A stretch of DNA of 64,000 bases from an uncultured Peptococcaceae bacterium (GTDB lineage: Bacteria; Bacillota; Dehalobacteriia; UBA7702), in assembly GCA_964637365.1 (NCBI GenBank), contig CAZWWH010000001.1, positions 132,269-196,268 of the forward strand. The letters run 5' to 3'. Each line of letters begins with the position of its first letter. Within the stretch, counting starts at the first letter, position 1. Below are positions 1,028-64,000 of the stretch, piece after piece. Made by a program: the position numbers and the translations under genes. Under the pieces are notes generated by a model. It did not search any database. It saw only the letters and a program-made list of their open reading frames with translations, and had not been told where the DNA came from.

Positions 1028-3118
1028 TTATTGTACTGTAGGTAATTTGGAGAAATCAGCTTTTTTATCTTTTCCCCAGAATTTGCCCAGCAATGATTTT
1101 TGTTTTTCTTGTACCACACGGTTTTTTGGACGGCCAACCGCAACGATTTCAATATGGCACTCAATGTGGAGGTGGGCGCCGCTCCCCTCTCTTCCCACTT
1201 TGGAATCCTTCCGATCCACCAAAACTTCATAGTCGTTCATTCCCTGAAGCTGCATTTCCACAGTCATTCTCTTTTTGCCCTCTTGAATCGCCAATTCAAT
1301 GGCCGTCTCCATGGGAGTTCGTTCCCCGATTTCGTCCTTATGCTCCGAAGGCTTAAAGTGACTTTTGCCCCAAGGCGCATAAACCTCGATACCGGAAGTA
1401 TCATGATTCTGAACCAAAATACGGTAAATGTTCATGACCTTCCCCGCCGCAGCTCCCACAGCGTTTGCCACTCCGTGATGGGATGGAAATATCGCGTCAG
1501 TATGGAGCTTTTCGCAGGCGGCAGGCAGCCAGAATTCCGTGGGAGCGCCAATGCCGACGACGGGAAGGGACAGAGAAATGTCGGTGGAGACCAAAGGCCC
1601 CTGCTTTTTGCCAAAGGAATTTTCTAAGAAATATTCCATGACCGTTTCTTTGGCAAAGGGATTTAAATCCTTCTTCTCATAAGTCCACATACTATCCAGA
1701 ATGACACGGTACATCTGCTCAGTCATGGCCTGCTTCAGCGTTTCCGTCAGCTCCGACAGCTGAAAATGGTGGGTTTGAGCAACCAAATGAGCAGCCAGAG
1801 TCCCCGCTTCTTGAGAACCGATTTCACATTCTCCCGCAAAATGGAGAAGATCAGTGGGCGTAAAACCTACGGTCCCCAAAATTCCATGATCCACCAAAGG
1901 TTCTATAGATAGAAAATTGGGATTCGTTTCCAAACAGCGGCTGATTTCCACCAGCGTATGGGGGGCTTCCTTCACAATTTCTATGACCTTCCGTTGTTCC
2001 TCGGTGAGCTCTGTATGAGGAGAAGGATGATGCAAGAGCAGATATCCCTCTACAGCCTCATGCCCCAAAAGCCCCACCGGGGAAAGAGAAATCTGTTTCA
2101 ACTCATCCAAATAATGGGGATACTGGCGGCAAATTACTGACACCGGCCAGCTGCGGCGCGGACCGATGCGCCATTCTCTCGTTGTATCGTCATAGCAAAT
2201 ATGACTGTCTCCTCCCAACCCAAAGGTAGTGGCCTCCACAGCAGAAACCCGTGTATGCCAACCGCCGACCTTGGCGCCGTTCTCATCGAGGCGCGGCAGC
2301 CCTTGGCGCAAAATCGCGATATCCGTGGTGGTGCCGCCCATATCAAGAACAATGCCCTCCCGCACGTCGCTTAAAAAAGTAGCTCCGATGATGCTGGCGG
2401 CAGGCCCCGACAGAATCGTTTCAATGGGACGTTCTCTGGCAACAGATTCGTTCATCAAGCTGCCGTCGCCTTTTACTACCATAATGGGAATATCTAATTT
2501 TTTTTCATCCAAAACCGTTCGGACAGCATTAAGAAGCTCATCAATGATATAGAGAAGACGGGCGTTCAACACCGCTGTAACGGTGCGCTCCTGCATACCG
2601 ATGACGGAACTCAACTCATGGGCTGCCACCACGGGGCATTTGAGGATTTTCCGCACCATTTCTTTGACGGTCTTCTCATGGGCGTCATTGCGGATGCTGA
2701 ATATTCCCGAAACAGCCACGGCGTCCACTTTATCCCGGAGGCTTTCAATTTCTTCCTTTATTTCTTCCAAATCAAGTGGTTCCGTTTCCTCCCCGCGGAT
2801 ATTATGTTTCCCGTGGAGAATGCGGTATTCACACTGGGGTAGTTCCGCTTTAGGAGAAAATCCCAGCAAAAGCAAGCCAACACGGCAGCCACGGCTTTCC
2901 ACAATGGCATTGGTGGCTAAGGTAGTGGATAATGCCAAATAATCCACTTGTTCCAACCAAGACTGTGGCAATTGATTAATGGTATTATGAATCCCAATCA
3001 TAAGGTCTTGATGGGTTGTGGACGACTTTGTTGACGCCAAAATTTCTTTTGTATCTAAATTGATGACGACGCCGTCGGTAAAAGTGCCGCCGGTATCAAT
3101 TCCTAAAACAATTGACAT
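1028..3118 (-). CDS. hydantoinase/oxoprolinase-family protein (HyuA-like ASKHA ATPase), 696 aa
   Basis: N-terminus MSIVLGIDTGGTFTDGVVI is the Hydantoinase_A_N signature; length matches HyuA-type proteins; no Cys cluster, so not a RamA-type activator; last gene of the mttB-paralog/BCCT operon. Confidence 0.55.
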   Translation of the reverse strand: MSIVLGIDTGGTFTDGVVINLDTKEILASTKSSTTHQDLMIGIHNTINQLPQSWLEQVDYLALSTTLATNAIVESRGCRVGLLLLGFSPKAELPQCEYRILHGKHNIRGEETEPLDLEEIKEEIESLRDKVDAVAVSGIFSIRNDAHEKTVKEMVRKILKCPVVAAHELSSVIGMQERTVTAVLNARLLYIIDELLNAVRTVLDEKKLDIPIMVVKGDGSLMNESVARERPIETILSGPAASIIGATFLSDVREGIVLDMGGTTTDIAILRQGLPRLDENGAKVGGWHTRVSAVEATTFGLGGDSHICYDDTTREWRIGPRRSWPVSVICRQYPHYLDELKQISLSPVGLLGHEAVEGYLLLHHPSPHTELTEEQRKVIEIVKEAPHTLVEISRCLETNPNFLSIEPLVDHGILGTVGFTPTDLLHFAGECEIGSQEAGTLAAHLVAQTHHFQLSELTETLKQAMTEQMYRVILDSMWTYEKKDLNPFAKETVMEYFLENSFGKKQGPLVSTDISLSLPVVGIGAPTEFWLPAACEKLHTDAIFPSHHGVANAVGAAAGKVMNIYRILVQNHDTSGIEVYAPWGKSHFKPSEHKDEIGERTPMETAIELAIQEGKKRMTVEMQLQGMNDYEVLVDRKDSKVGREGSGAHLHIECHIEIVAVGRPKNRVVQEKQKSLLGKFWGKDKKADFSKLPTVQ

Positions 3119-4797: not shown

Positions 4798-6261
4798 TTA
4801 TTCGCCGATTCTTTTCTGGGCTTTTTCAAGAACTTCGTCTAATTTGGCGATTACATCGGCAGGAAGCTCAGGAACCTCATGTTCGGCCAAAAGTTTTTTG
4901 GTTCTTTCATGCATTCTGGTACGGAAGTCGGTGGGGTTTTCTTTCCATACATCATATCTCTGTCTGTCCATGAGGTTGGGGAACCAGAGTTCACTTTTGA
5001 AGTTTTCAAAAGTGTGCATATGAGTGATGTATTCACCGCCAGGACCAATTTCTTTGATTACATCAAGAGCAAGTTTTTCGGGAGTGATTTCCACGCCACG
5101 GCGGATGCGGCGGGCATAACCGATGGCTTCGTCAGCCATGGTGATGAGGTCGAGGTGGGAGGCGGCGGCGGATTCCATGAATCCCACGTCATGAACGAGG
5201 TTGCCACCGGAGAGGCAGTTTACGAGAGAGGTAAATGCGCATTCCAAAGCGCACTGCTCGTCAACAACTTTGGAGTCGGAGGCGCAGGCCGTTTCCCAGC
5301 AGGGAAGGTCGAGATAATGATAGATATCAGCGACTAAGCTTTCACCGAGGCAGTGTTCGGGAGTACCGTAAGCAGCCTGAGTGGTGTTCATATCGACGGT
5401 CAAGGTTACGCAGGTGGCAACATAGCCGTTACCAGGACGTACAGACTGGCTCAGTACGAGACCGGCGAGGTTTTCCGCAATACCGAGGGTGATGGAGCCG
5501 GCGATGGTCATGGGCGATACGCAGCCGAGCTGTACACCGGAGGGCCAGAGAACGGTCATGCCGCGTTCCGCACAATATACGTGCTTGCGGGCAGCGTCCG
5601 CAGGAACAGTAAGGGGAGTCACAGGATCGCCAGCATAGCAGATGGCGAAGGGTTTTTCAAGGAAAGCTTCCCAGCTGCCTCTTACGGCTGCCATCATTTC
5701 GAACTGTTCTTCCAGACCTTCTACATCAACGCCCCAACAAACGATGGGCTTGGTGGTGTTCTGAAGCATTTCGTGCATTTCGCAGGTATCGGCGATGAGA
5801 GGGTTCCAGTCACGGATACCGGCCAGGGACATGATAAAGTCGATATTGGGAAGAGCGTCGGAAAGTTTTGCGCTGTTGGCAACGTCGCTCTTTCTTGCTT
5901 CACGTCTTTCATAGGTTTCAAAGTCATAGTAGAAGGGATTTGTGGGACCATTGCCAAAGTAGGTGTTGTTGCCGCCTACATCCATGGCATGTTCACCGAA
6001 ACGGTTGTAAACCTGAATATGAGAGGGAGCGGTGCTGATCGCTTTTTTAACGAGTTCTCTGTCGACAAAAACTCGGTTGCCTTCGACGCGGCAGCCATAT
6101 TTTTCCATATAATCACGGGCGCCGGGATCCATGATGTCGGTACCAACTTCTTCAAGAATTTCGAATGCACCGTTAAGAATCAATTCGATCTGTTCTTCGG
6201 TTGCCACATGATAACGCATTACGTTTTCTTTGTAATGGGAGGTGATGCCTTCAATTGCCAT
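4798..6261 (-). CDS. MttB-superfamily methyltransferase without pyrrolysine (quaternary-amine:corrinoid methyltransferase, MtgB/MtcB/MtpB-like)
   Basis: 487-aa uninterrupted ORF homologous along its whole length to the Pyl-containing mttB at 62622-64000; the residue aligned with Pyl is Cys (…ETAC-ASDSKVVDEQ…); operon with BCCT transporter. Confidence 0.85.
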   Translation of the reverse strand: MAIEGITSHYKENVMRYHVATEEQIELILNGAFEILEEVGTDIMDPGARDYMEKYGCRVEGNRVFVDRELVKKAISTAPSHIQVYNRFGEHAMDVGGNNTYFGNGPTNPFYYDFETYERREARKSDVANSAKLSDALPNIDFIMSLAGIRDWNPLIADTCEMHEMLQNTTKPIVCWGVDVEGLEEQFEMMAAVRGSWEAFLEKPFAICYAGDPVTPLTVPADAARKHVYCAERGMTVLWPSGVQLGCVSPMTIAGSITLGIAENLAGLVLSQSVRPGNGYVATCVTLTVDMNTTQAAYGTPEHCLGESLVADIYHYLDLPCWETACASDSKVVDEQCALECAFTSLVNCLSGGNLVHDVGFMESAAASHLDLITMADEAIGYARRIRRGVEITPEKLALDVIKEIGPGGEYITHMHTFENFKSELWFPNLMDRQRYDVWKENPTDFRTRMHERTKKLLAEHEVPELPADVIAKLDEVLEKAQKRIGE

Positions 6262-6339
6262 AGTTTTAAACTCCTTTCAAAATAAACATCATTTGGTTTT
6301 TGGATTGTTTGTTTTTTTGTCGTGAACGTCTTACTATAA

Positions 6340-6355
6340 TGCAAGGAGCGTGCCA
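6340..6355 (-). promoter_or_regulatory. sigma-54 (-24/-12) promoter driving the mttB-paralog/BCCT/hydantoinase operon
   Basis: minus strand reads TGGCAC-GCTCC-TTGCA, an exact match to TGGCAC-N5-TTGCW, about 80 nt upstream of the start at 6261; divergent from the sigma-54 activator gene. Confidence 0.8.
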
Positions 6356-6479
6356 AAATAAATAAAAAAACAAAAAAATTTTTCTTTACAAAAAATCTAC
6401 TTTATATATACGAATGCCAATAGAACTTAAAAATTTTTATCACAAGGGGTTGAATTACATAATTTTCATGTTATAATCT

Positions 6480-6550
6480 ATTATGCAAATATTTTTGCGG
6501 CAAAATTATTTGCTATTGCCAGGAAAAATGCAAATATATTTGCTATTTTA
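6480..6550. promoter_or_regulatory. candidate enhancer (UAS) palindromes for the adjacent sigma-54 activator
   Basis: TTTTTGCgGCAAAAT perfect palindrome plus repeated TTTGCTATT/GCAAATAT half-sites about 150-200 bp upstream of the -24/-12 element. Confidence 0.4.
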
Positions 6551-6594
6551 AAACAATGTAAATTTTTTGCTTACGAAATTTGGGAGCGGAAACT

Positions 6595-8082
6595 ATGGAA
6601 TTAAAAATCACCAAAAAAATTTTGTTTGAGATCATTGAACACCTCAAAGAAGCCGTCTATATCGTAGACGCCCAAGGGAAGGTTGTCTATTTAAACGATG
6701 CAGCTTCCGAGCTGGAACAGATGCCGAAAAAGGATTTTCTGGGGAAAACCATTGCCGATGTTTACTTTAACACAGAATTTCATTCTCACAAAAACTCCCC
6801 TTGTCTCGACGTCTTAGCCAGCGGTGAAGTACAGGAAAACGAAAACCTGGAATGGTACACCGCCGACGGTACCACCATTAATGCCATCACCAATACCTTT
6901 CCCATCATGGAAAACGGTGAGATATTAGGGGTATTTTCCATGGCGGAAAATATCGCGGACCTGAAAAAGCGCCTCATTGAAATAGGAGCCTTTCCCCGAA
7001 AGCAAACCTACCGCATGAAAAAGAAAACCCTCCATAACGGCACCTCTTACATTTTTGATGACATCATCGGCGAAAGTGACGCCCTGCAAAGCACCATCAC
7101 CATTGCCCGGCGGTTTGCCGCCAAAAAGCTGCCGGTCATGATATACGGTGAAACAGGAACCGGGAAAGAGATGTTCGCCCAAAGCATTCACAACGCCAGC
7201 TCCTCGGTGGCAGGCCACTTCATCCCCGTGAACTGCGCCGCCATCCCAGAGAATCTGCTGGAAAGTATCCTCTTCGGCACTGTCAAAGGAGCCTTTACCG
7301 GGGCCATTGACAGTGTGGGGCTTTTAGAGAAAGCGGAAAACGGCTCTGTTTTCTTAGATGAAATCAACTCCATGCCCATTGGCCTGCAAGCAAAAATCCT
7401 TCGAGCGTTACAGGAAAAGGAGGTACAGCGCATTGGCGACAGCAAAACGAGAAAGATCAACTGCCGAATTATCAGCGCCACCAACAAGCTGCCTGCGGAA
7501 GCCATTCGTGACGGAGAAATGCGGGAGGACTTATTCTACCGGTTATCAACTGGGATGATTCTCATCCCACCACTGCGGGAGCGGGGCAATGATTTTGAAC
7601 TCCTGGCAGACTATTTCATCGCAAAGTGTAACGAGGAAATTGACGCCACCGTGACGGCTATGTCGCCGGAGCTGAAAAATCTTTTAAAGACATACTATTT
7701 CCCCGGTAATATCAGAGAGCTTGCCAATATCATTGAAAGTGCCATGAATATGACCATTGAAGGAGAAAATATCCTGGACCTGCGGCATCTTCCCACCTAT
7801 CTGAAAAACCATTTCAAAGAGGAAATTTCCGCCATGCCCAATGCGGAGCAGGTCTTTCAAAGGCATAGTCCCCAAAGCCACAAAAATGTCCCTCAAATGG
7901 ACTTCCATGGCAATCTCAATACCATGATGGCAGAATACGAGAAGGGCCTGATTGAACTCGCTTTGGCCAGCACTCAAGGAAATCTCACCAAATGCGGGGA
8001 AAAGCTGGGGATCACCCGTCAGAATCTCACCTTTAAGATGAAACGGCACAATATTGATTTAAAAAAATTCAAACGCAGATAG
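6595..8082 (+). CDS. sigma-54-dependent transcriptional activator (PAS sensor - AAA+ - HTH)
   Basis: GETGTGKEMFAQSIHNAS Walker A, GAFTGA motif (GAFTGAIDSVG), ESILFG, C-terminal Fis-type HTH, N-terminal PAS-like domain; ATG at 6595 has a GGAG RBS (the ORF track starts at an upstream TTG, 6580). Confidence 0.85.
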   Translation: MELKITKKILFEIIEHLKEAVYIVDAQGKVVYLNDAASELEQMPKKDFLGKTIADVYFNTEFHSHKNSPCLDVLASGEVQENENLEWYTADGTTINAITNTFPIMENGEILGVFSMAENIADLKKRLIEIGAFPRKQTYRMKKKTLHNGTSYIFDDIIGESDALQSTITIARRFAAKKLPVMIYGETGTGKEMFAQSIHNASSSVAGHFIPVNCAAIPENLLESILFGTVKGAFTGAIDSVGLLEKAENGSVFLDEINSMPIGLQAKILRALQEKEVQRIGDSKTRKINCRIISATNKLPAEAIRDGEMREDLFYRLSTGMILIPPLRERGNDFELLADYFIAKCNEEIDATVTAMSPELKNLLKTYYFPGNIRELANIIESAMNMTIEGENILDLRHLPTYLKNHFKEEISAMPNAEQVFQRHSPQSHKNVPQMDFHGNLNTMMAEYEKGLIELALASTQGNLTKCGEKLGITRQNLTFKMKRHNIDLKKFKRR

Positions 8083-8151
8083 ATAAAAGCCTGTTAAGAA
8101 AAACTTAGAGGAGGCCAAGGCCTCCCCTTTTTCCATGCGGCACATCTGAAA

Positions 8152-9612
8152 TTATTTTACGCGGTCTTCTGCCCGGGCCAAAATCGCATCAAGGCGGGCC
8201 ACTACTTCCTCGGGCAAAGCAGGTACCTGGTGCTCAGCCAAAAGGCGTTTTGTTTTTTCGTGAACGCGAGTACGCATATCCGTAGGATTGTTGATCCAAG
8301 ATTGGTAGCGGCTGCGATCCATCAAAGTAGGCTGCCACAGCTCCTTCTTAAAGTTCATGAAAGTATGCTCGTTGGTGAGGAATTCACCGCCGGGGCCGAC
8401 GGCTTTGATAACGTCATAAGCCAAGGTATCATCAGAAATTTCGATACCTCTAGTGATGCGACGGGCATAGCCGATGATTTCATCACACATGACGATCTGA
8501 TCCAAGGAGGCGGACATAGCGCCATCAATAAAGCCCACGTCATGAACGAGATGGCCACCGCTCAAGGCGTTGGACAAGATTTGCATGGACGATTCAATGG
8601 CAGCTTGTTCATCCACTACCTTAGCTTCGGTGACACCGCCGGTTTGGAACATCGGTAAATTGAGATAATGGAAAATATCAGCAATGGCGCTTTCCCCCAG
8701 GCAATGCTCAGGGCTGCCATAGGCCGACTGGGTGGTAGCCATATCCACAGCTAGAATCACAACACCCCCCACAAATACGCTGCCTCTTTTTAACAGCTGG
8801 GACAAAACAAGGCCAATGAAAACCTCAGCCAACCCCATGGCTAAGCCTGCGGCAATGGTTACAGGAGAAGTCGAGCCCAGTTGGGGGCCGGTGGGCCAAA
8901 TGATAGGCAAACCGGCTTCAATGCCACACTCTAATTTATCAAAATTACTGGTATCAATGACTAAAGGCGTTACAGGGCAGCCGGGGAAAATGGCAACAAA
9001 GGGCTTTTCACGCAATTTATCCATACCGCCGGCGACTTCAGCACACATTTCAATTTCATCTTGGAAGCTTTCCACTGTGGTACCCCAAGCCACAAAGGGT
9101 TTTGTGGTATTTTCCAAAATTTCGCGTACTTCTACAACGTCAGCAACATCGGGGTGGCAATCGGAAATTCCAGCGAGGCCCATAATAAAGTCGATGTTGG
9201 GGCAGGCATCGGAAATCCGGGCGTTATTGGCCACGTCTTTACGGAGACCTTCGCGGCGTTCCCCGGTTTCAAAATCGTTGTACATGGGATTAGTGGGGCC
9301 ATTGCCGTAGTAGTTGTTAATACCGCCGGCACGAATGACTTCATTGCCCATGCGGTCGTAAAGCACCATTTCCGAAGGAGCCGAAGCAATGCATTCCTTT
9401 ACAAGGCTGGCAGGGACTTTGACGATGTTATCCTCCGCCGCACAGCCAGCTTTAACCAAAAGCTCAATGGCTCTGGGATTTTTAATCATCATCCCGGTAT
9501 CCTCCATGATATGGAGAGCGGCTTCAATAATTTTTTCACATTCGGCTTCGGTCAAAGCCTGATAGCGAGATTTGTTAACGTGGTAGTAAGATTGAATACC
9601 TTTGATCGACAT
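8152..9612 (-). CDS. MttB-superfamily methyltransferase without pyrrolysine (second paralog)
   Basis: 486 aa, about 50% identical to 4798-6261; the Pyl-equivalent position is Val (…MFQTGGV-TEAKVVDEQ…). Confidence 0.85.
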   Translation of the reverse strand: MSIKGIQSYYHVNKSRYQALTEAECEKIIEAALHIMEDTGMMIKNPRAIELLVKAGCAAEDNIVKVPASLVKECIASAPSEMVLYDRMGNEVIRAGGINNYYGNGPTNPMYNDFETGERREGLRKDVANNARISDACPNIDFIMGLAGISDCHPDVADVVEVREILENTTKPFVAWGTTVESFQDEIEMCAEVAGGMDKLREKPFVAIFPGCPVTPLVIDTSNFDKLECGIEAGLPIIWPTGPQLGSTSPVTIAAGLAMGLAEVFIGLVLSQLLKRGSVFVGGVVILAVDMATTQSAYGSPEHCLGESAIADIFHYLNLPMFQTGGVTEAKVVDEQAAIESSMQILSNALSGGHLVHDVGFIDGAMSASLDQIVMCDEIIGYARRITRGIEISDDTLAYDVIKAVGPGGEFLTNEHTFMNFKKELWQPTLMDRSRYQSWINNPTDMRTRVHEKTKRLLAEHQVPALPEEVVARLDAILARAEDRVK

Positions 9613-9676
9613 ATTTCATTCTCCTTTTTTGTTTTGTCGCAAACAAGTCGTGTCGTGTTTTTCACAAGTATGTAAA

Positions 9677-9692
9677 CGCAAAACCCGTGCCA
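9677..9692 (-). promoter_or_regulatory. sigma-54 (-24/-12) promoter of the second mttB paralog
   Basis: minus strand TGGCAC-GGGTT-TTGCG, about 65 nt upstream of the start at 9612. Confidence 0.75.
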
Positions 9693-9759
9693 AAACCCAT
9701 ATTTTTTCCACGATTCTTTTTCGCTACATATAGATATGGAATAAAGGAGTCAATAACTG

Positions 9760-9910
9760 ATTCTATAGGCGTCATGTAAATATTTATTGCCGCAATAAAT
9801 ATTTCATCTATAAAAAATCGCAATAAAAATTGCTACTTCGGCACAAACTATTTTTGACAATTTTCATTGCCTATTCAGGAAAAACGACATTTTTATTGCG
9901 CAATATTTCT
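9760..9910. promoter_or_regulatory. candidate activator-binding palindromes
   Basis: TTTATTGCcGCAATAAA (perfect 8+8 palindrome), AATCGCAATAAAAATTGCTA and ATTGCGCAAT; same TTGC-N-GCAA theme as at 6480-6550. Confidence 0.45.
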
Positions 9911-9987
9911 TGCGGTATGCTTTTTGCATATATCATATTAACAAAGAGGCACAAAGCATAAACCAAACCGAGAAAGGAGGAAACTCA

Positions 9988-11466
9988 TTGAGAAAAGTAA
10001 TGAATGAATCGCTGCTGCTGGATATCATTGAGCATTTTCATGCCGCAGTCTACATTGTGGATAAAGACGGAAATATGGAATACCTAAACAGTGCAGCCAA
10101 ACGCATGGACCGCCTTACCGATAATGTCATTGGCAAAAACTTATCGGAAATTTATTACAATACAGTTTTCCAGGAAGGCATGAACTCCCCCTGCTTAGAC
10201 ACCCTCAAAACAGGAAATGCCCACATTTACGAAAATTTAGAGTGGTATCTCAAAGACGGTACTACGGTCAACGCCATTACCAGCACTTATCCCATTATCA
10301 AGGAGGGAGAAATCCAGGGTGTATTTGCCCTGTCCGAAGATGTCAATCAATTAAAAAAGTTCCTGATAAAAAATGGTGCTTTCAAACAGAAATTGTCCTA
10401 CCGTTTCCGCAATAAGACCATGAAAAACGGTACTCAATATGTGTTCAACGATATCATTGGGGAAAGCGAATTGATGAAAAATACCATTATGATGGCTCGG
10501 CGGTTTGCCGCCAAAAAGCTGCCGGTAATGATATACGGCGAAACCGGTACCGGTAAAGAAATGTTCGCACAGAGCATCCATAATGCCAGCCCCTATGTGG
10601 CCGGGCCTTTTATTCCCATCAACTGCGCGGCCATTCCCGAAAACCTGCTGGAAAGTATGCTTTTCGGCACTGTCAAAGGAGCCTTTACCGGCGCCCTGGA
10701 CCATGCTGGACTTTTTGAAAAGGCCGAGGGCGGTTCCGTGTTTCTCGACGAAATCAACTCCATGCCCATGTTGCTCCAAGCAAAGATCCTCAGGGTTCTC
10801 CAAGAAAAGGAAGTGCAGCGCATTGGCGATAGTAAAACACGAAAAATCAACTGCCGCATCATTAGCGCTACCAATCAATTACCCACTGAAGCCATCCGCT
10901 CTAACAGCCTGCGTGAGGATTTATTTTACCGTTTATCCACCGGCATGGTCTGGATTCCTTCCTTGAAAGAACGCAGCGAAGATATCTCCCTTTTGGTAGA
11001 TTATTTTATGGAAAAGGCCAATGCGGAATTGGATACCACCATCCTCTCCATTTCACCAGAGCTGGACCATTTGTTCCATGCCTATGACTGGCCGGGTAAT
11101 ATCAGGGAACTGTCCAATGCCATAGAAAGCGCCATGAACATGACGCTGGATGGGGAAACCGTACTGGACCTGCGACATCTACCCACTTACTTAAAGCGGC
11201 ACTTTAGCACGGAATTGATGGGAATGCCCAATGCAGAGGAGGTCTTCTCCGTACGAAACGAGTCCATGGACAACCCTGCGCCCATGCTCCACCTTCATGG
11301 CAATATCAATGAAATGGTAGACGCTTACGAAAAAGAGCTGATTCAATTCGCTTTACGCGCTACTAGGGGCAACCTTTCCAAGGCTGGGGAAAAACTGGGA
11401 ATCTCTCGCCAAAGCCTTTCTGTAAAACTGAAAAAGCATTGCATTGATGCAAAAACTTTTAAATAA
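9988..11466 (+). CDS. sigma-54-dependent transcriptional activator (PAS - AAA+ - HTH), paralog of 6595-8082
   Basis: the same motif set (GETGTGKEMFAQSIHNAS, GAFTGA) and about 65% identity to the first activator; likely TTG start at 9988 (GGAGG 7 nt upstream) or ATG at 10000. Confidence 0.85.
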   Translation: MRKVMNESLLLDIIEHFHAAVYIVDKDGNMEYLNSAAKRMDRLTDNVIGKNLSEIYYNTVFQEGMNSPCLDTLKTGNAHIYENLEWYLKDGTTVNAITSTYPIIKEGEIQGVFALSEDVNQLKKFLIKNGAFKQKLSYRFRNKTMKNGTQYVFNDIIGESELMKNTIMMARRFAAKKLPVMIYGETGTGKEMFAQSIHNASPYVAGPFIPINCAAIPENLLESMLFGTVKGAFTGALDHAGLFEKAEGGSVFLDEINSMPMLLQAKILRVLQEKEVQRIGDSKTRKINCRIISATNQLPTEAIRSNSLREDLFYRLSTGMVWIPSLKERSEDISLLVDYFMEKANAELDTTILSISPELDHLFHAYDWPGNIRELSNAIESAMNMTLDGETVLDLRHLPTYLKRHFSTELMGMPNAEEVFSVRNESMDNPAPMLHLHGNINEMVDAYEKELIQFALRATRGNLSKAGEKLGISRQSLSVKLKKHCIDAKTFK

Positions 11467-11545
11467 TAAAGAATCAACGGCTATAGGCCCCAAATCATCA
11501 GTATTCGATCCTCTCATTCAAATATTTTTATCACATGATAGTTTT

Positions 11546-11561
11546 TGGCATAAAATTTGCA
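11546..11561 (+). promoter_or_regulatory. sigma-54 (-24/-12) promoter upstream of the MFS transporter gene
   Basis: TGGCAT-AAAAT-TTGCA (GG-N10-GC spacing preserved) about 190 nt upstream of the ATG at 11754. Confidence 0.6.
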
Positions 11562-11753
11562 ATATTATATTGACAAATGTCGTGAACAATAAAAAAATCG
11601 TCTGTCGTGAACCATGCAATTATTCCAAATTCGTTTTATCATCTTTTCAAAACGACTCAGAAAACGGGAATCAATGAAACATTTTCATACAACTGAATAA
11701 TGAATTTTCATCTTAATTTGGACTTCTTAATAAAGAATTAGGAGGCATATTTT

Positions 11754-13013
11754 ATGAGTAAAAAAGGATTAAACCGCTGGTTTGTTTTATTCATCTTATC
11801 TCTGGCCTGCGGGCTGATTTATCAACTGCCCTACCTTCGTTATAGCTATTATGATTCCATGATCGTTGCCTTTAACGTCACCAATACCCAGTTGGGGACT
11901 TTCATGACTGCCTTTGGTCTTGGTTCTCTCGTATGCTATCTCATCGGCGGCGTACTGGCCATGAAGTTTTCCGATAAAGCCTTGCTTCCCTTAGGACAAA
12001 TTCTCACAGGGGCTGCGGGACTCTGGTTTGCAACCTTTCCTTCTTACGGCATCTGCCTGTTCATCAGTTTCTTCTGGGCCTTTTCCACTTCTCTGATTTT
12101 CTGGCCCGCAGTTATCAATTTTGTCCGCGGCATGGGCGACTCCAAAGAACAAGGACGTCTATATGGTCTTTTTGAAGGGCTCCGCGGCATCACCGCCACC
12201 ATCATTGGTCTCGGCATTGTAGCGCTTTTCAACGGCGCCTTAAGTGAAACCGCGGGACTCCGCACCGTAATCCTGGCCTATGCCATCATCAATATCGTTC
12301 TTGGGATTATCACCTTCTTTGTAGTACCCAACAACAAAGAGGAAAAGAAAGCACTCAGTGCTGCCAGTGGCGAACAACTATCTCTTGGAGCGGGGTTTAT
12401 GAAAGCCCTGAAGCTCCCCATTACCTGGATTGCTTCGGGCATCGTGTTCTGCACCATGATGGTATTTGACTGTCTCGGTTATACCACGCCTTATCTCACC
12501 GGCGTGATGGGCGCCACCGTTGTATTTGCCGCCACCTTCGGCACCATCCGCACCTGGGGGCTTCAAATTGTCGGCGGTACCTGCGGCGGTATCATTGCCG
12601 ATAAAATCGGTTCCTCTGCCAAAACCCTGATCGGCGCTTTCGTCGTCATCGGCATAGGATTTGCCGCTTTGGCCTTGCTTCCTGCCGGCTCCTTCTGGGT
12701 TGCCACTATTTTGATCCTGGTGTTTGGTATCGCGATTTACGTCAACCGCGGCGTTTACTTCGCGGTTCTGGACGAAGCCAAAGTCCCTGCCAGCATCAAC
12801 GCTGCTGTGGTCGGCATCGTATCCGCCATTGGCTTTACCCCTGATGCTTTCATTTACACTGTCATCGGCTATTGGCTTGACAAATATCCCGGCGCCACCG
12901 GATATCAAATCACCTTTTGGTGCGGCACCATCTGCGCTGCAGTCGGGGTAATTCTCTCCATTATCGCAGTAAAAGTAATTAAAAACAACAAATCCAAAGT
13001 TACATCCGAGTAA
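11754..13013 (+). CDS. MFS transporter
   Basis: 419 aa, 12 predicted TM segments, two MFS-like halves; GGAGG RBS. Confidence 0.75.
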   Translation: MSKKGLNRWFVLFILSLACGLIYQLPYLRYSYYDSMIVAFNVTNTQLGTFMTAFGLGSLVCYLIGGVLAMKFSDKALLPLGQILTGAAGLWFATFPSYGICLFISFFWAFSTSLIFWPAVINFVRGMGDSKEQGRLYGLFEGLRGITATIIGLGIVALFNGALSETAGLRTVILAYAIINIVLGIITFFVVPNNKEEKKALSAASGEQLSLGAGFMKALKLPITWIASGIVFCTMMVFDCLGYTTPYLTGVMGATVVFAATFGTIRTWGLQIVGGTCGGIIADKIGSSAKTLIGAFVVIGIGFAALALLPAGSFWVATILILVFGIAIYVNRGVYFAVLDEAKVPASINAAVVGIVSAIGFTPDAFIYTVIGYWLDKYPGATGYQITFWCGTICAAVGVILSIIAVKVIKNNKSKVTSE

Positions 13014-13096
13014 CACTCATCGAAGCGACATTTTCTTTGCCCAAAAATCTGTTTCTACTTAGCAAAAAAATAACAACCTTCCCATATGTTCTCTTC

Positions 13097-13135
13097 AAAA
13101 AAAAGCCATTGGAATTTTCTCCAATGGCTTTTTCT
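13097..13135. terminator. bidirectional rho-independent terminator
   Basis: AAAAAGCCATTGGA-attttc-TCCAATGGCTTTTT, perfect 11-bp stem flanked by A/T runs. Confidence 0.75.
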
Positions 13136-13136
13136 T

Positions 13137-13868
13137 CTATGGTATTTGCTTTTCTTTCGTATGGTAATCAATATTCGCTTTTCGGGCCTGGGAACAAAGG
13201 TCTTTCACTCCTAAAGTATACTGTTTGCCGTCTTTGATAAAATGGGTACCGCATTGGCGAAATTCAAAGGAAACCCCGTGGGCCATACATTGTTCTCGAA
13301 TACCCAGCACCCAATCGTAATGAAGGGGCCGGGCAAATCGGTCCGACTCTCCTCCCACTACCACAAGGTCGATGCCATCCAGAAACGATTCCAGATTCAC
13401 GGCGCCAATCAAGGGCTGGCAGATAATATTTCTATGTTTGATAGGCAAGGAGGAAAAAATGGAAAGCCGTTCCACGGCTTTGGCCTGATTTTCCACAGTG
13501 CAGCCCACGGTCACATTATCGTAGCCATCCCCCCAGTCCTTGGGAACGCAGTCCATAAAACGATGAATGCGCTTGGTTAGGAAAAGGAAATCTAAATCGG
13601 GGCGTTGTTTCATCATGGCCCAACAGTCATCGCGCCAGGGATCTGCCTCATCCAACAAAAAATCCGAAGAAAAACAAAGATAGACCCGCTGATGGGGCTT
13701 CATTTTATATTGGCCGTTTTTCAATTTTACAATAGGAGCGTCAAACTGAGGGGTTTTTACAATTTGGGAGGTATCAATCTTGCGCTTAGCGTCGCCTTTG
13801 TGAATGTAACAAAACTTGCATCCCTCACTGAAACGGCGGCAGCCCCGCCAAGGATTCCACATTGCCAT
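13137..13868 (-). CDS. phage Gp37/Gp68-family protein (DUF5131)
   Basis: N-terminal MAMWNPWRGCRRFSEGCKFCYIH matches the WNPxxGC…SxGCxxCY signature of the family. Confidence 0.7.
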   Translation of the reverse strand: MAMWNPWRGCRRFSEGCKFCYIHKGDAKRKIDTSQIVKTPQFDAPIVKLKNGQYKMKPHQRVYLCFSSDFLLDEADPWRDDCWAMMKQRPDLDFLFLTKRIHRFMDCVPKDWGDGYDNVTVGCTVENQAKAVERLSIFSSLPIKHRNIICQPLIGAVNLESFLDGIDLVVVGGESDRFARPLHYDWVLGIREQCMAHGVSFEFRQCGTHFIKDGKQYTLGVKDLCSQARKANIDYHTKEKQIP

Positions 13869-14170
13869 AAATATTCCACCCTTCCGCTAGATACCATTAT
13901 AACAATCATCATAGGAAATAGATACCCATCTCAAACAAATTCGGTTTAATTCCTCAGGCGTCCATGACAGAAACAGCCGGAGATGGTATAATAAAAGAAA
14001 CGCAGCGTTGTTTCCATATATATATATTTGAAATCAAAGGTGCTGCTATCGATATCTTTATTTGAGTTTTTATATCAACGCGGTATAAAAGAGAGGTGGT
14101 ATACTGTGAAGCTCTGCATTGTTTAGCCGAAATAGTCTGTGAAACAATACGAAAATATAGGAGGCTTTTC

Positions 14171-14815
14171 ATGGCTATTTCGGGAATAAAAATTTATCCC
14201 CGCACAGAAGATAAAGAAACGATTTACTTAAAAAATGTTATCACAAACCCCAACATAATCGTTGGCGACTACACCATGTACAATGACTTTGTCAATGACC
14301 CAACCTTGTTTGAAAAAAACAATGTATTGTACCATTATCCAGTCAACAATGATAAACTTGTTATCGGTAAGTTTTGCTCCATTGCTTGCGGCACCCGTTT
14401 TCTCTTTAACAGCGCCAATCACGCATTATCTTCATTATCTACTTATCCATTTCCCATATTTTTTGAGGAATGGGGATTGAACGGAAAGGATGTAACCACG
14501 GCCTGGGATCATCAAGGAGACATTATCATAGGAAATGACGTATGGATCGGTTATGAAGCCGTGATTATGGCCGGGGTGACGATTGGAGACGGCGCAGTAA
14601 TCGGCGCCAGGGCATTGGTGACAAAGGACGTCCCTCCATACACCATTGTTGGTGGAATACCCGCTAAGCCCATACGAAAGCGCTTTTCGAAACAAACCAT
14701 TTCCAAACTGACGAAAATAAAGTGGTGGGATTGGTCCCCCCAGAAAATTACCCAAAACATTGATGCCATTCAAGCTGGCGACCTTGAAGCACTCTTGCGG
14801 CAGGTAAATATGTAG
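14171..14815 (+). CDS. vat: Vat-family streptogramin A O-acetyltransferase (xenobiotic acetyltransferase, hexapeptide repeat)
   Basis: YHYPVNNDKLVIGKFCSIACGTRF…NHA…STYPF…GDIIIGNDVWIGYEAVIMAGVTIGDGAVIGA…KIKWWDW motifs characteristic of Vat/Sat proteins; GGAGG RBS before the ATG at 14171 (the ORF track starts upstream at 14096). Confidence 0.8.
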   Translation: MAISGIKIYPRTEDKETIYLKNVITNPNIIVGDYTMYNDFVNDPTLFEKNNVLYHYPVNNDKLVIGKFCSIACGTRFLFNSANHALSSLSTYPFPIFFEEWGLNGKDVTTAWDHQGDIIIGNDVWIGYEAVIMAGVTIGDGAVIGARALVTKDVPPYTIVGGIPAKPIRKRFSKQTISKLTKIKWWDWSPQKITQNIDAIQAGDLEALLRQVNM

Positions 14816-15515
14816 TATGACGCTTTTGCTCCCCCCCTTCTGAGGCGAAAGAGCCCATTTTATTTTAGGACAACATCATCTTTTTGCCGCCCGCAGGAGA
14901 ATTTGTTCATTCCAAGTGATAGATTCACTTGCGGGTGGCTCTCTTTTATGCCTGTTCAAAACGGTTCATGGAAAAAATAAAGTGCGGCGGAACATTATGT
15001 CCGCCGCAAAAGCAATCGATATAAAAATTAAAATATAAGGAGAATTTAGAATCCATATCATAAGTGCACAAATCGCACGAATTTAAGAAAGAAGGGGCAA
15101 ATGCGTAACTTAGGCGAGATAGGCGATTGCCCAACAAAGAAAAAAATAAGGAGTTTGTGTTAAGATTGGCAACTAAATAAAAAAGCCTTGCTTCCGAAGA
15201 ACCAAGGCGATTTTGAGAAATTAAAAATCGCAAACTTCTTACGCGGAAGTTTCCAAATCATCAATGAGGTTTCAGTATCCTGACTTACCTTCAACGTCTT
15301 CCTGCGCCTTCCCGGTTTCCCAGTGGCAAAATGCAGTAGACTCAGAGCTTACAGTGGCGCGACCGTCCGGGATTTAAACCCGATTCCTTCATACCTCAAT
15401 GTAATGTGCTATTCACTTTTGTTGAAGTAATCATAACACATCGAATTGGAAAAATCAAGTACTTTTTTTAAAATCTTGGCATTCCGGTGATTCCAATTTG
15501 TTATCACCAAAACCC

Positions 15516-49099: not shown

Positions 49100-49370
49100 T
49101 GACTCCTGAATCTTTTACCAAAACAAAAAAACCGCACCCAATCCAGAGACAGGGTTCGGCTGTGGTTCCACTCTGATTTACGGCGAAAAGCCGCATCTCA
49201 ATTCCTTTAACGCAGGTCATACGTCGTCGCCTAAAGAAAAAAATCCCTCAGCGCCGCGGCTCCCAAGTGCACTTCAGAAAAGTTATTGCCGAGACCGCTT
49301 TCAGCCGGTGACGGTCTCTCTCTGCTGCCAGCCCTTTTCTTACTCTCTTGTTCAAAGCCTTTGCATTTGT
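49100..49370 (-). ncRNA. probable T-box riboswitch leader (Cys-specific) of the cysE-cysS operon
   Basis: leader contains AGAGAG (stem I base), a UGCA candidate specifier, a T-box-like AAUCAGAGUGGAACCACAG (consensus AAnnnGGGUGGnACCGCG), then the terminator CCGAACCC…GGGUGCGG + U7 directly before the cysE RBS. Confidence 0.5.
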
Positions 49371-62621: not shown

Positions 62622-64000
62622 TTATTCCTTGATACCGTATTCTTCGGCGGCTTCGGAGATAATATCACGCATGCCAGCTTCTACGCCGTCAGCAAGAGGA
62701 GCGACTTTATGGTTTTCCATGATGTATTTTGCGCGTTCATAAGCACGTTCAGCCAAGTCGGTTTTGCCTTCCATTTCCCAAGTTTCACGCATGGTGCGGC
62801 AGAAGAGGCTGCTGGTGCTTTGTTCTTTTCTGAAGCGTTCAAAGGTATGAGGATGGCTGACCAATTCGCCGCCAGGCCCGATCTCCTTGATCAGATCAAC
62901 GGCGAGATTTTCGTCAGTTACTTTGATACCTTCAATGACTTTGCGGATCATGGTATAGATTTCGTTATCAATGACGAACTGAGCATAGTCGAAAGTGATA
63001 CCGAGGTCTAACATCCCGGCCCCATAAATGATGTTGGCGCCGCCCTGGGCTGCCAAAAGGGCTGTCAATGTTTTTTCATGAGCTGCTTGAGCATCGGGGA
63101 GTTTGCTGTCTGCCTAACCACCGGCTACGAAGCTGGGGAGATTATAGAACTGAGCCAGACGTGCAACGGAAGCACTGATCATGCCCAATTCAGGAGCACC
63201 AACAGGAGCGGTAGTATAACGCATATCCATGATGGTGGTGGAGCTAGCATAGATGCAGGCCGCGCCTTTTTGGGTCAACTGAGAAAGAACGATAACGCTC
63301 AAAACTTCAGCATTGTGGGTAACGAGAGTACCGGCCAAAGTTACAGGAGAAGTAGCACCAGCCATAGCCATGGAAATGATGTTAATGGGAACACCTTCTT
63401 TGGCAGCAAGAATTACGACGTCAGTGCATTCAGGAATCAATTTCAACAAACTGGTGGGGCATACATTGAAAGTGACCAAAGGTCTTTTGCGAAGGTTTTC
63501 TCTGCCGCCAGCAACGAGGGAAGCCATACGAATGATTTTCTTAGCATTTTCAGCGCCATCGGGACCGATGAAAACGTGTTTGGTGGTATTGGGGAAAATC
63601 GCTTCCGCATTGTGGAGTGCTTGAAGAGGACCAGGGATGTCCTGAGAAGCAACGGCACGGTAAGTGATATCCATATTGGAAAGGTAGTCGCTCATGATGG
63701 AACATTTTACCAAGTCAGCTTTGGTGCTGGGACGATATTCTTTGGTTTCGATATCGCGAACAACAACGCCTTCACCGAAGTTAACAAAACCAACTCTATT
63801 TTTTTCTACCACATAGTCCTTTTGAGGATCTCTTGCAGCCAAGAGAACAGTGGGGGGAGCGGTACGGATGGCATCTTCCACCACATAGGGAGGGATGCGG
63901 ACGATATTGGTTTCAGGATCTACTACAGCGCCGCCAGCGGCAAAAATTTCTCTGGCTTCTGCGCTATCTACTCGTACCCCGACATTTTGCAGGAGATCGA
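62622..64000 (-). CDS. mttB: trimethylamine:corrinoid methyltransferase MttB with in-frame UAG (pyrrolysine) codon at 63114-63116; 5' end lies beyond the window
   Basis: ORFs 63114-63884 and 62622-63068 are in the same frame and joined through a single TAG: …LAQFYNLPSFVAGG-[UAG]-ADSKLPDAQAAHEKTLTALLAAQGGANIIYGAGMLD…. Both flanks align with the uninterrupted paralogs at 4798-6261 and 8152-9612, and the upstream frame continues to the window edge with MttB-like sequence. Confidence 0.85.

Follow-up and report, generated by a model that had tools for sequence, protein, structure and literature searches.

Complementary copies of a short conserved motif in the sigma-54 leaders of MttB-paralog and MFS transporter genes: a candidate mRNA-mRNA pairing element in uncultured gut Bacillota

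We analysed a stretch of 64,000 nucleotides (nt) from an uncultured Peptococcaceae bacterium (contig CAZWWH010000001.1, positions 132,269 to 196,268; hereafter the window), in which a short motif, TGTCGTGAAC, recurs in the 5' leaders of transcription units with sigma-54 promoters. As shown in Table 1, the region carries genes for two MttB paralogs, two activators and an MFS transporter. These gene assignments, proposed in an initial annotation made from the sequence, were confirmed by Pfam, and the three sigma-54 promoters that it had named (P1, P2 and P3) were upheld by their match to the consensus. We accepted as such a promoter any correctly spaced TGGCAC-N5-TTGCW ahead of a gene and adjacent to the gene of an enhancer-binding activator; P1, P2 and P3 carry 0-1 mismatch to this consensus, adjoin activator genes and are kept in orthologs. 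We placed the transcription start (+1) by counting 12 bases on from the C of the -12 GC, and all starts given below are therefore predictions from promoter geometry.

Table 1. Features of the window that bear on the motif (L002-L005, four close orthologous loci described in the text)
Feature	Position	Strand	Remarks
MttB paralog 1 (MttB1)	4798-6261	-	Pfam
BCCT transporter and hydantoinase-like gene			downstream of MttB1, one operon; Pfam
Class A element, CGTTCACGACA on the transcribed strand	6318-6328	-	core at predicted +2 of the MttB1 mRNA
Sigma-54 promoter P1, TGGCACGCTCCTTGCA	6340-6355	-	MttB1-BCCT-hydantoinase-like operon; kept in L002-L005
Three GCAAA-N6-TTTGC palindromes	6485-6543		between MttB1 and activator 1; triplets also in L002-L005
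Activator 1, PAS-AAA+(Sigma54_activat)-HTH_8	6580-8082	+	Pfam
MttB paralog 2 (MttB2)	8152-9612	-	Pfam
Diverged class A copy, TGTCGCAAACAA (TTGTTTGCGACA on the transcribed strand)	9635-9646	-	P2 leader
Partial class A repeats, CACGACACGAC on the transcribed strand	9647-9657	-	predicted +10 to +20 of P2; the site seen in the initial annotation
Sigma-54 promoter P2, TGGCACGGGTTTTGCG	9677-9692	-	MttB2; consensus match
Activator 2, PAS-AAA+(Sigma54_activat)-HTH_8	9910-11466	+	Pfam
Sigma-54 promoter P3, TGGCATAAAATTTGCA	11546-11561	+	MFS gene; directly 3' of activator gene 2
Predicted 5' leader of the MFS mRNA, ~180 nt	11572-11753	+	
Class B copy 1, TGTCGTGAACA	11578-11588	+	sense in the MFS leader, core at predicted +10
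Class B copy 2, TGTCGTGAAC	11603-11612	+	sense in the MFS leader, core at predicted +35
MFS transporter	11754-13013	+	Pfam

Exact copies of TGTCGTGAAC were found at 6318-6327, 11578-11587 and 11603-11612, each just 3' of a good sigma-54 promoter, which corresponds to approximately +2 to +12 for P1 and to +8 to +17 and +33 to +42 for P3. The initial annotation had reported TGTCGTG(AAC) in the leaders of all three units. This holds for P1, whose copy lies exactly where it had been placed, and for P3, whose two copies are real but had been given as 11577-11586 and 11607-11616, i.e. off by 1 and 4 positions. It does not hold for the P2 site: the sequence given as TGTCGTGTCGTG at 9645-9656 is actually AGTCGTGTCGTG at 9646-9657, which shares only CACGACA with the motif, and a further copy in the same leader (TGTCGCAAACAA, 9635-9646) had been overlooked. 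The latter copy is placed approximately 10 nt upstream of the MttB2 Shine-Dalgarno sequence and departs from the consensus solely by C>T and A>G changes; its ortholog in locus L002 reads TTGTTTACGACA. The partial repeats next to it are not kept as such in the L002 ortholog, and are predicted to pair with the second motif copy of the MFS leader. A recurrent variant, GTTCACAAAA, occupies the place of the class A element in the P2 leader of L002 (2531-2600) and in L104 (4200-4290, minus strand), where the gene that bears it is an MFS gene of another type. The P2 leader of the window begins with TTGTGAAAAAC, the reverse form of this variant.

Within the window, the frequency of the motif is unremarkable. 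The 7-mer TGTCGTG occurs 6 times (4.5 expected), and 881 different 10-mers are found at least three times, so that a triple 10-mer alone is not special; a 10-mer present three times across the three leaders alone is uncommon, being observed in 39 of 5000 shuffles. The case for the motif comes from related loci. A genome scan with MttB1 identified four close orthologous loci (L002-L005, 85-95% identity) in uncultured gut Bacillota labelled Peptococcaceae or Candidatus Cryptoclostridium, and further loci were recovered via homologs of the activator (48-65% identity: L033, L034, L036, L104, L124, L163, L164, L165 and L166), which brought the comparison to approximately 12 genomes with activator identities of 48-95%. 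The order activator, promoter, MFS gene is shared with L003-L005, L033, L034, L036, L124, L163 and L165. We also scanned metagenomes with the pattern TGGCAY-N5-TTGC-N11-18-GTTCACG; among the matches listed, almost all were chance matches in GC-rich soil and sediment contigs, and only L104 and L124 were useful. An exact look-up of MttB1 yielded a single contig, whose end is 101 bp upstream of the gene, and a look-up of the EamA protein, intended to prolong the source contig to the left, gave no match.

In all four close orthologs (4/4), GTGTTCACGACA is found 3' of the -12 element at identical distance, while the remaining leader has diverged. The 8-base core occurs 33 times in 226 kb of related loci, 30 of these copies being situated within sigma-54 leaders and the 3 others at chance level elsewhere. 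The 10-mer is represented by 20 copies in the same 226 kb, as against 0 in 250 kb of distant MttB/activator loci; among the latter, the clusters L037 (activator identity 50%), L039 (44%) and L041 (Candidatus Formimonas, 43%) do have sigma-54 promoters, without the motif. Thus, of the frequency check proposed in the initial annotation, enrichment of the 7-mer in the window was not found, whereas the concentration in leaders of related loci was, and its check of orthologous promoters gave a positive answer: orthologs and paralogs with diverged flanks retain the motif in its position, which makes it more than a chance recurrence. Since it is kept in related loci and absent from the distant clusters, the motif is, by this comparison of sequences, a genuine element under selection that belongs to the sigma-54 units of one clade. 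A literature search with the motif strings returned unrelated primer sequences only. It is worth mentioning that the motif-free cluster L039 contains the sigma-54 gene rpoN (12906-14312), located between its MFS and BCCT genes.

Consensus sequences derived from anchored alignments revealed that the element occurs in two classes. Class A (aggTGTTCACGAcA) is present on the sense strand of every MttB-paralog leader; of 14 promoters, 13 have the core TGTTCACG at predicted +2/+3, and the one of L124 has it at +6. Class B (gtCGTGAACAA) is present on the sense strand in the leader of the gene for an MFS protein of approximately 418 amino acids, directly 3' of the activator gene; each such leader carries 1-3 copies, the first core being placed between +5 and +10 and the others no further than +132, with 21-63 nt between copies of one leader. 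Over ten shared bases, GTCGTGAACA, each class is the exact complement of the other. The orientation described for the window in the initial annotation (antisense in both methyltransferase leaders, sense in the MFS leader) was correct. The conclusion drawn from it, that opposite orientation argues for a DNA site rather than an RNA motif, did not survive the wider comparison, in which all methyltransferase leaders (14/14) carry the element on one strand and all copies in MFS leaders (19/19) on the other. With the strand strictly class-specific, the methyltransferase and MFS transcripts are complementary to each other. No copy was found upstream of a predicted start in the leaders of these genomes, i.e. 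all are inside predicted transcripts.

Further arrangements of the element were seen in two loci of the set. An MttB leader of L166 (380-700, minus strand) carries two class A copies, GTGTTCACGG at +2 and TTTGTTCACGAAAAG directly upstream of the Shine-Dalgarno sequence, a placement that resembles that of the diverged P2 copy of the window. In L165 (6251-6700, equivalent to 4162-3727 of L004, minus strand), two tandem sigma-54 promoters, 233 nt apart, precede one MFS gene; each is followed by class B copies, and palindromes of a third type (TGAAAT-N4-ATTTCA) are located between them, so that this transporter may answer to two different activators.

The reading that we put forward is that the element is one half of an RNA-RNA pairing between co-activated sigma-54 transcripts, joining the MFS leader to the 5' ends of the MttB-operon messages; we regard this proposal, which was drawn from comparison of sequences, as evenly balanced between right and wrong. 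According to it, MttB-operon mRNAs would begin with (G)GUGUUCACGACA (class A), 1-3 nt from the predicted 5' end, and the MFS leader would carry 1-3 complements, GUCGUGAACAA (class B), which are predicted to be unpaired, often in a hairpin loop. For this to hold, the 5' end of MttB transcripts has to lie 0-3 nt ahead of GUGUUCACG, and the MFS transcript has to begin ahead of its first B copy. Once both promoters are switched on by the activator, the B loop would pair with 10-15 nt at the extreme 5' end of the MttB mRNA or, in a minority of leaders (e.g. P2), with a copy just upstream of the ribosome-binding site. The most likely effect would be protection of the 5' end from a 5'-3' exonuclease of RNase J type or altered translation, by analogy with the RoxS-yflS and hly-prsA2 systems discussed below, and either would couple expression of the enzyme and the transporter. 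The start sites here follow from promoter geometry, and we infer the pairing in the cell, its direction and its effect.

The flanks of class B copies suggest an RNA structure. The mean best flanking stem around these copies measures 5.0 bp, against a null value of 3.65 ± 0.25 obtained when flanks were re-paired between sites (0 of 5000 permutations), and 8 of the 19 copies have stems of at least 5 bp (p<0.0002 vs permuted flanks); class A cores show no such excess (2.4 vs null 2.5). Examples of these hairpins (arm / loop / arm) are (i) TTCTGTAAGT / CGTGAACAA / ACTTACAGAA in L005, (ii) GTATGT / CGTGAACA / ACATAC in L033, (iii) GAGTGT / CGTGAACAA / ATACTC, with one G·U pair, in L002, and (iv) GTAAAGAG / CCGTGAACAAA / CTCTTTAC in L034. 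The inverted-repeat arms around the B cores differ in sequence from genome to genome, and a conserved loop on variable stems is, as judged from these alignments, the signature of an RNA structure and not of a protein-binding palindrome. In each of the nine genomes analysed, the B core was predicted to be more accessible than in leaders whose flanks had been shuffled (mean z 1.05).

The two classes also fit each other better when both come from the same genome than when they come from different ones. The best A/B match inside a genome averaged 10.75 nt when only Watson-Crick pairs were counted (p = 0.004 vs permuted genome pairing) and 11.7 nt with G·U pairs allowed (p = 0.0014 against the same null). 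The longest single pairs reached 14 nt (L163, A1-B1), 15 nt (L163, A2-B2), 15 nt (L034, A2-B3) and 12 nt (L036), and these 12-15-nt pairs extend into otherwise unconserved flanks. Duplex energies calculated with RNAduplex were -21.9 kcal/mol for same-genome and -18.8 kcal/mol for cross-genome combinations, with the same-genome partner ranked first of 9 in 5 of 14 cases. Compensatory changes were detected in L036 (A is CACGAT and both B copies are ATCGTG) and in L034, where CACGGT in A2, the copy of the second methyltransferase, is matched by GCCGTG in B3. Variant copies change mostly in such compensatory or in G·U-compatible ways, the latter in A copies that have diverged by transitions: CA>TG in P2 of the window, C>T in P2 of L002 and AC>GT in L164 (TGTTCGTGAC). 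The whole P2 leader is predicted to form a duplex of -27.3 kcal/mol with the P3 leader that engages both B copies at once (z -3.8), and P2 would therefore belong to the system, mainly via the overlooked copy at 9635-9646.

Several observations weigh against pairing. The two B copies of the window have no flanking stems (best 3 bp), the leader that contains them shows no significant fold (z -0.12), and in L005 and L124 some or most of the left hairpin arm precedes the predicted start. We considered transcription running on from the activator gene as a source of these arms; in most orthologs, however, an intrinsic terminator separates that gene from the B promoter, so that read-through cannot supply the left arms of L005 and L124. 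The argument from substitutions relies on 4-5 independent events, found in part with a tool that allows G·U pairs. Near-invariance of 11 nt over such divergence is more typical of a protein site. Pairing partners could drift together, and the pairing model must assume that the seed is kept from changing by the large number of targets in each genome. The co-variation within genomes could alternatively be caused by a co-evolving DNA-binding protein, and it is hard to see what would be gained by pairing two mRNAs that are induced together.

As an alternative, already proposed in the initial annotation and a serious rival although we consider it somewhat unlikely on the sequences compared, the element may be a double-stranded DNA operator: a protein would bind the asymmetric 10-12-bp site GTCGTGAACA in either orientation, its occupancy of +2 to +12 would block open-complex formation or promoter escape, the copies in the MFS leader would act as roadblocks, and a common signal would thus be laid on top of the substrate-specific activators. 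Both orientations are indeed found, the 11-12-bp block is conserved more strongly than the -24/-12 elements in the anchored alignment, the distance of class A from the -12 element is fixed, and the same motif accompanies different activator sites, as expected of a shared regulator. Such arrangements are known from Bacillus subtilis, where second regulators bind at or just 3' of the starts of sigma-54 (SigL) promoters, as AhrC does at rocA/rocD; CcpA reportedly acts through a cre site at the levanase operon, which has a SigL promoter (Martin-Verstraete 1995). The likeness is that a site at or just 3' of an activator-dependent -24/-12 start adds a second input. The differences are that neither a cre site nor an ARG box is matched by the present motif, which lacks dyad symmetry and occurs in complementary, strand-specific classes in two kinds of transcript.

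The comparison with operators can be taken further. The element shows neither dyad nor direct-repeat symmetry, aggTGTTCACGAcA having a TGT...ACA pseudo-dyad only, and the best matches to cre, ARG box, Rex and LexA sites carry 4-6 mismatches. Better matches to Spo0A (1-2 mismatches, in all three leaders) and CRP/FNR (2 mismatches, in P2) miss the conserved core CGTGAACA. Beside the activator, no candidate regulator gene is conserved in the neighbourhoods of the loci, and a regulator may be encoded elsewhere. Apart from the three chance-level copies in the 226 kb, the element does not occur outside transcribed leaders. The spacing between multiple copies is unconstrained, as expected of independent seeds rather than of operators. 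Finally, an operator leaves unexplained the variable-stem hairpins confined to class B, the predicted accessibility, the same-genome complementarity that extends into the flanks, and the bias towards G·U-compatible changes.

A less probable explanation, to which we give little credence, is that two independent cis-acting RNA features happen to be complementary: class B would be a 5'-terminal stabilising stem-loop or the site of an RNA-binding protein, class A an initial-transcribed or 5'-end signal, and their complementarity a by-product of inverted promoter-proximal duplication. 5'-terminal hairpins stabilise mRNAs in Firmicutes, the first B copies of L002, L033 and L034 form stems from approximately +1 to +3, and the clusters have clearly been multiplied by duplication. 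Against this, two separate selective forces would have to conserve exactly complementary 10-11-mers across all the genomes compared, the excess of same-genome complementarity and the compensatory variants would stay unexplained, and many B copies, both copies of the window among them, are stemless.

The remaining candidate was a site of the activator itself, and the sequences upstream of the promoters bear on it directly. We took as upstream activating sequences palindromes in 2-3 copies, approximately 80-200 bp upstream of the -24 element and specific to an activator. The triplet of 14-bp palindromes between MttB1 and activator 1 (GCAAATATTTTTGC, GCAAAATTATTTGC and GCAAATATATTTGC) and that in the second MttB-activator intergenic region (GCAATAAATATTTC, GCAATAAAAATTGC and GCAATATTTCTTGC; 9780-9913) are presumably the binding sites of the activators, as judged from their arrangement. 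Their fifth base is A in the first region and T in the second, which suggests paralog-specific recognition. The palindromes are of GCAAA-N6-TTTGC type in the window and L002-L005 and of GTAAC-N4-GTTAC type in L166 and L104, with the motif identical in both groups; hence it is not the activator's own site. Accordingly, it failed as an upstream activator site, being downstream of the promoter, non-palindromic and unrelated to the palindromes, and the layer separate from the activator sites that the initial annotation had postulated is supported by palindromes that differ between paralogous clusters while the motif stays constant.

The MFS promoter is peculiar in having no room for upstream sites of its own (11467-11545 of the window). 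In orthologs, the activator gene is followed by an intrinsic terminator that borders directly on the -24 element (L034, 4785-4894, and the equivalents in L005, L033, L036, L163 and L165); in the window, no terminator was found between activator gene 2 and the MFS promoter (11467-11545). Activation of this promoter would have to come from sites approximately 1.6 kb upstream or from a lone palindrome, TTGCATTGATGCAA, within the end of the activator gene (~11441-11454), an arrangement that recalls the distant enhancer of rocG in Bacillus subtilis. RocR-type activators are able to act from downstream sites (rocG), so that, with almost no room upstream of the MFS promoter, the motif might be a downstream enhancer site of the activator or an extended part of the sigma-54 promoter; we consider this highly improbable and rejected it because the motif does not vary with the type of upstream site, is flipped between the classes and is absent from the distant sigma-54/MttB clusters L037, L039 and L041.

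The MFS (P3) leader contains no terminator, and its overall fold is no more stable than that of shuffled sequences (z -0.12), for which reasons there is no evidence for a separate small RNA (sRNA) gene or a riboswitch in it. A scan of the window against Rfam 15 at gathering thresholds detected no family in the three sigma-54 leaders, and an E-value scan of the MFS leader only gave chance-level matches far below threshold. Elsewhere in the window, Rfam recognized a cobalamin riboswitch (15275-15387, minus strand), a T-box leader (49142-49364, minus strand) and a PYLIS element of mttB type (63017-63116, minus strand); owing to the last of these, near the window end, the genome also appears to encode a true pyrrolysine-containing trimethylamine methyltransferase.

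Two genes of the neighbourhood are worth mentioning. A hydantoinase/oxoprolinase-like gene of approximately 690 codons (Hydant_A_N, Hydantoinase_A and a weak MutL match) is the constant last gene of MttB-transporter operons (1028-3118 of the window, minus strand; L163, 4597-6669; L165, 1-1266; L004, 9147-11219), and its product could be an ATP-dependent partner, e.g. with a function like that of a corrinoid reactivase. A DUF5131 (PF07505) gene lies beside the cluster in two unrelated loci (13137-13868 of the window and 3206-3913 of L163, both on the minus strand), and a link with the methyltransferase/transporter system is possible.

The mRNA-mRNA pairing proposed above has two relatives among described systems. 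In the Firmicute RoxS-yflS pair, a trans-acting RNA pairs with the first nucleotides of its target mRNA (PMC5419742). The proposed system would resemble it in the target motif at predicted +2/+3, in a regulator seed that is predicted to be unpaired or, in part of the copies, in a loop, and in the coupling of a transporter with a metabolic function; the complementarity to the first nucleotides of the target, counted from predicted starts, is 10-15 nt and contiguous. It differs in that the pairing RNA would be the 5' leader of an mRNA and not a stand-alone sRNA, in that the seed is CGUGAACA, repeated 1-3 times, instead of a C-rich region, and in that both partners come from sigma-54 promoters under the same activator. 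In Listeria monocytogenes, the hly-prsA2 mRNA-mRNA interaction of functionally linked genes protects against RNase J1 (PMC8722363). There, as proposed here, an untranslated region of one mRNA binds the 5' end of its partner; in Listeria this regulator is a 3' untranslated region, whereas here it would be a 5' leader with several seed copies, and several paralogous target operons share the target sequence. The classes of mechanism considered, 5'-end pairing and an operator at a sigma-54 promoter, are thus already known, and the element itself is previously undescribed whichever of them holds. In line with the novelty claimed in the initial annotation, our literature search found no paper joining MttB paralogs and sigma-54, and nothing on the control of these MttB-paralog gene clusters.

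If the element does serve pairing, a broader picture may be drawn from the same alignments, which we offer tentatively and with somewhat less than even confidence: the clade of uncultured gut Bacillota (Peptococcaceae-like) would wire its quaternary-amine methyltransferase regulons by an mRNA-mRNA network, with the MFS leader as a multi-headed riboregulator. Each seed displayed in a loop would be matched to the message of one MttB-paralog operon, at its 5' end or next to its ribosome-binding site; the leader would set the stability or translation of the enzyme mRNA, and the specificity of seed and target would co-evolve within each genome. Should the element instead prove to be an operator, it would be the binding site of a common regulator of these regulons. 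If the pairing model is confirmed, it would represent a rare case of mRNA-mRNA regulation between sigma-54 transcripts and would offer a clean natural system in which 5'-end protection in Firmicutes can be studied with several seeds and several paralogous targets. The MttB-paralog gene clusters are also relevant to the balance of trimethylamine in the gut.

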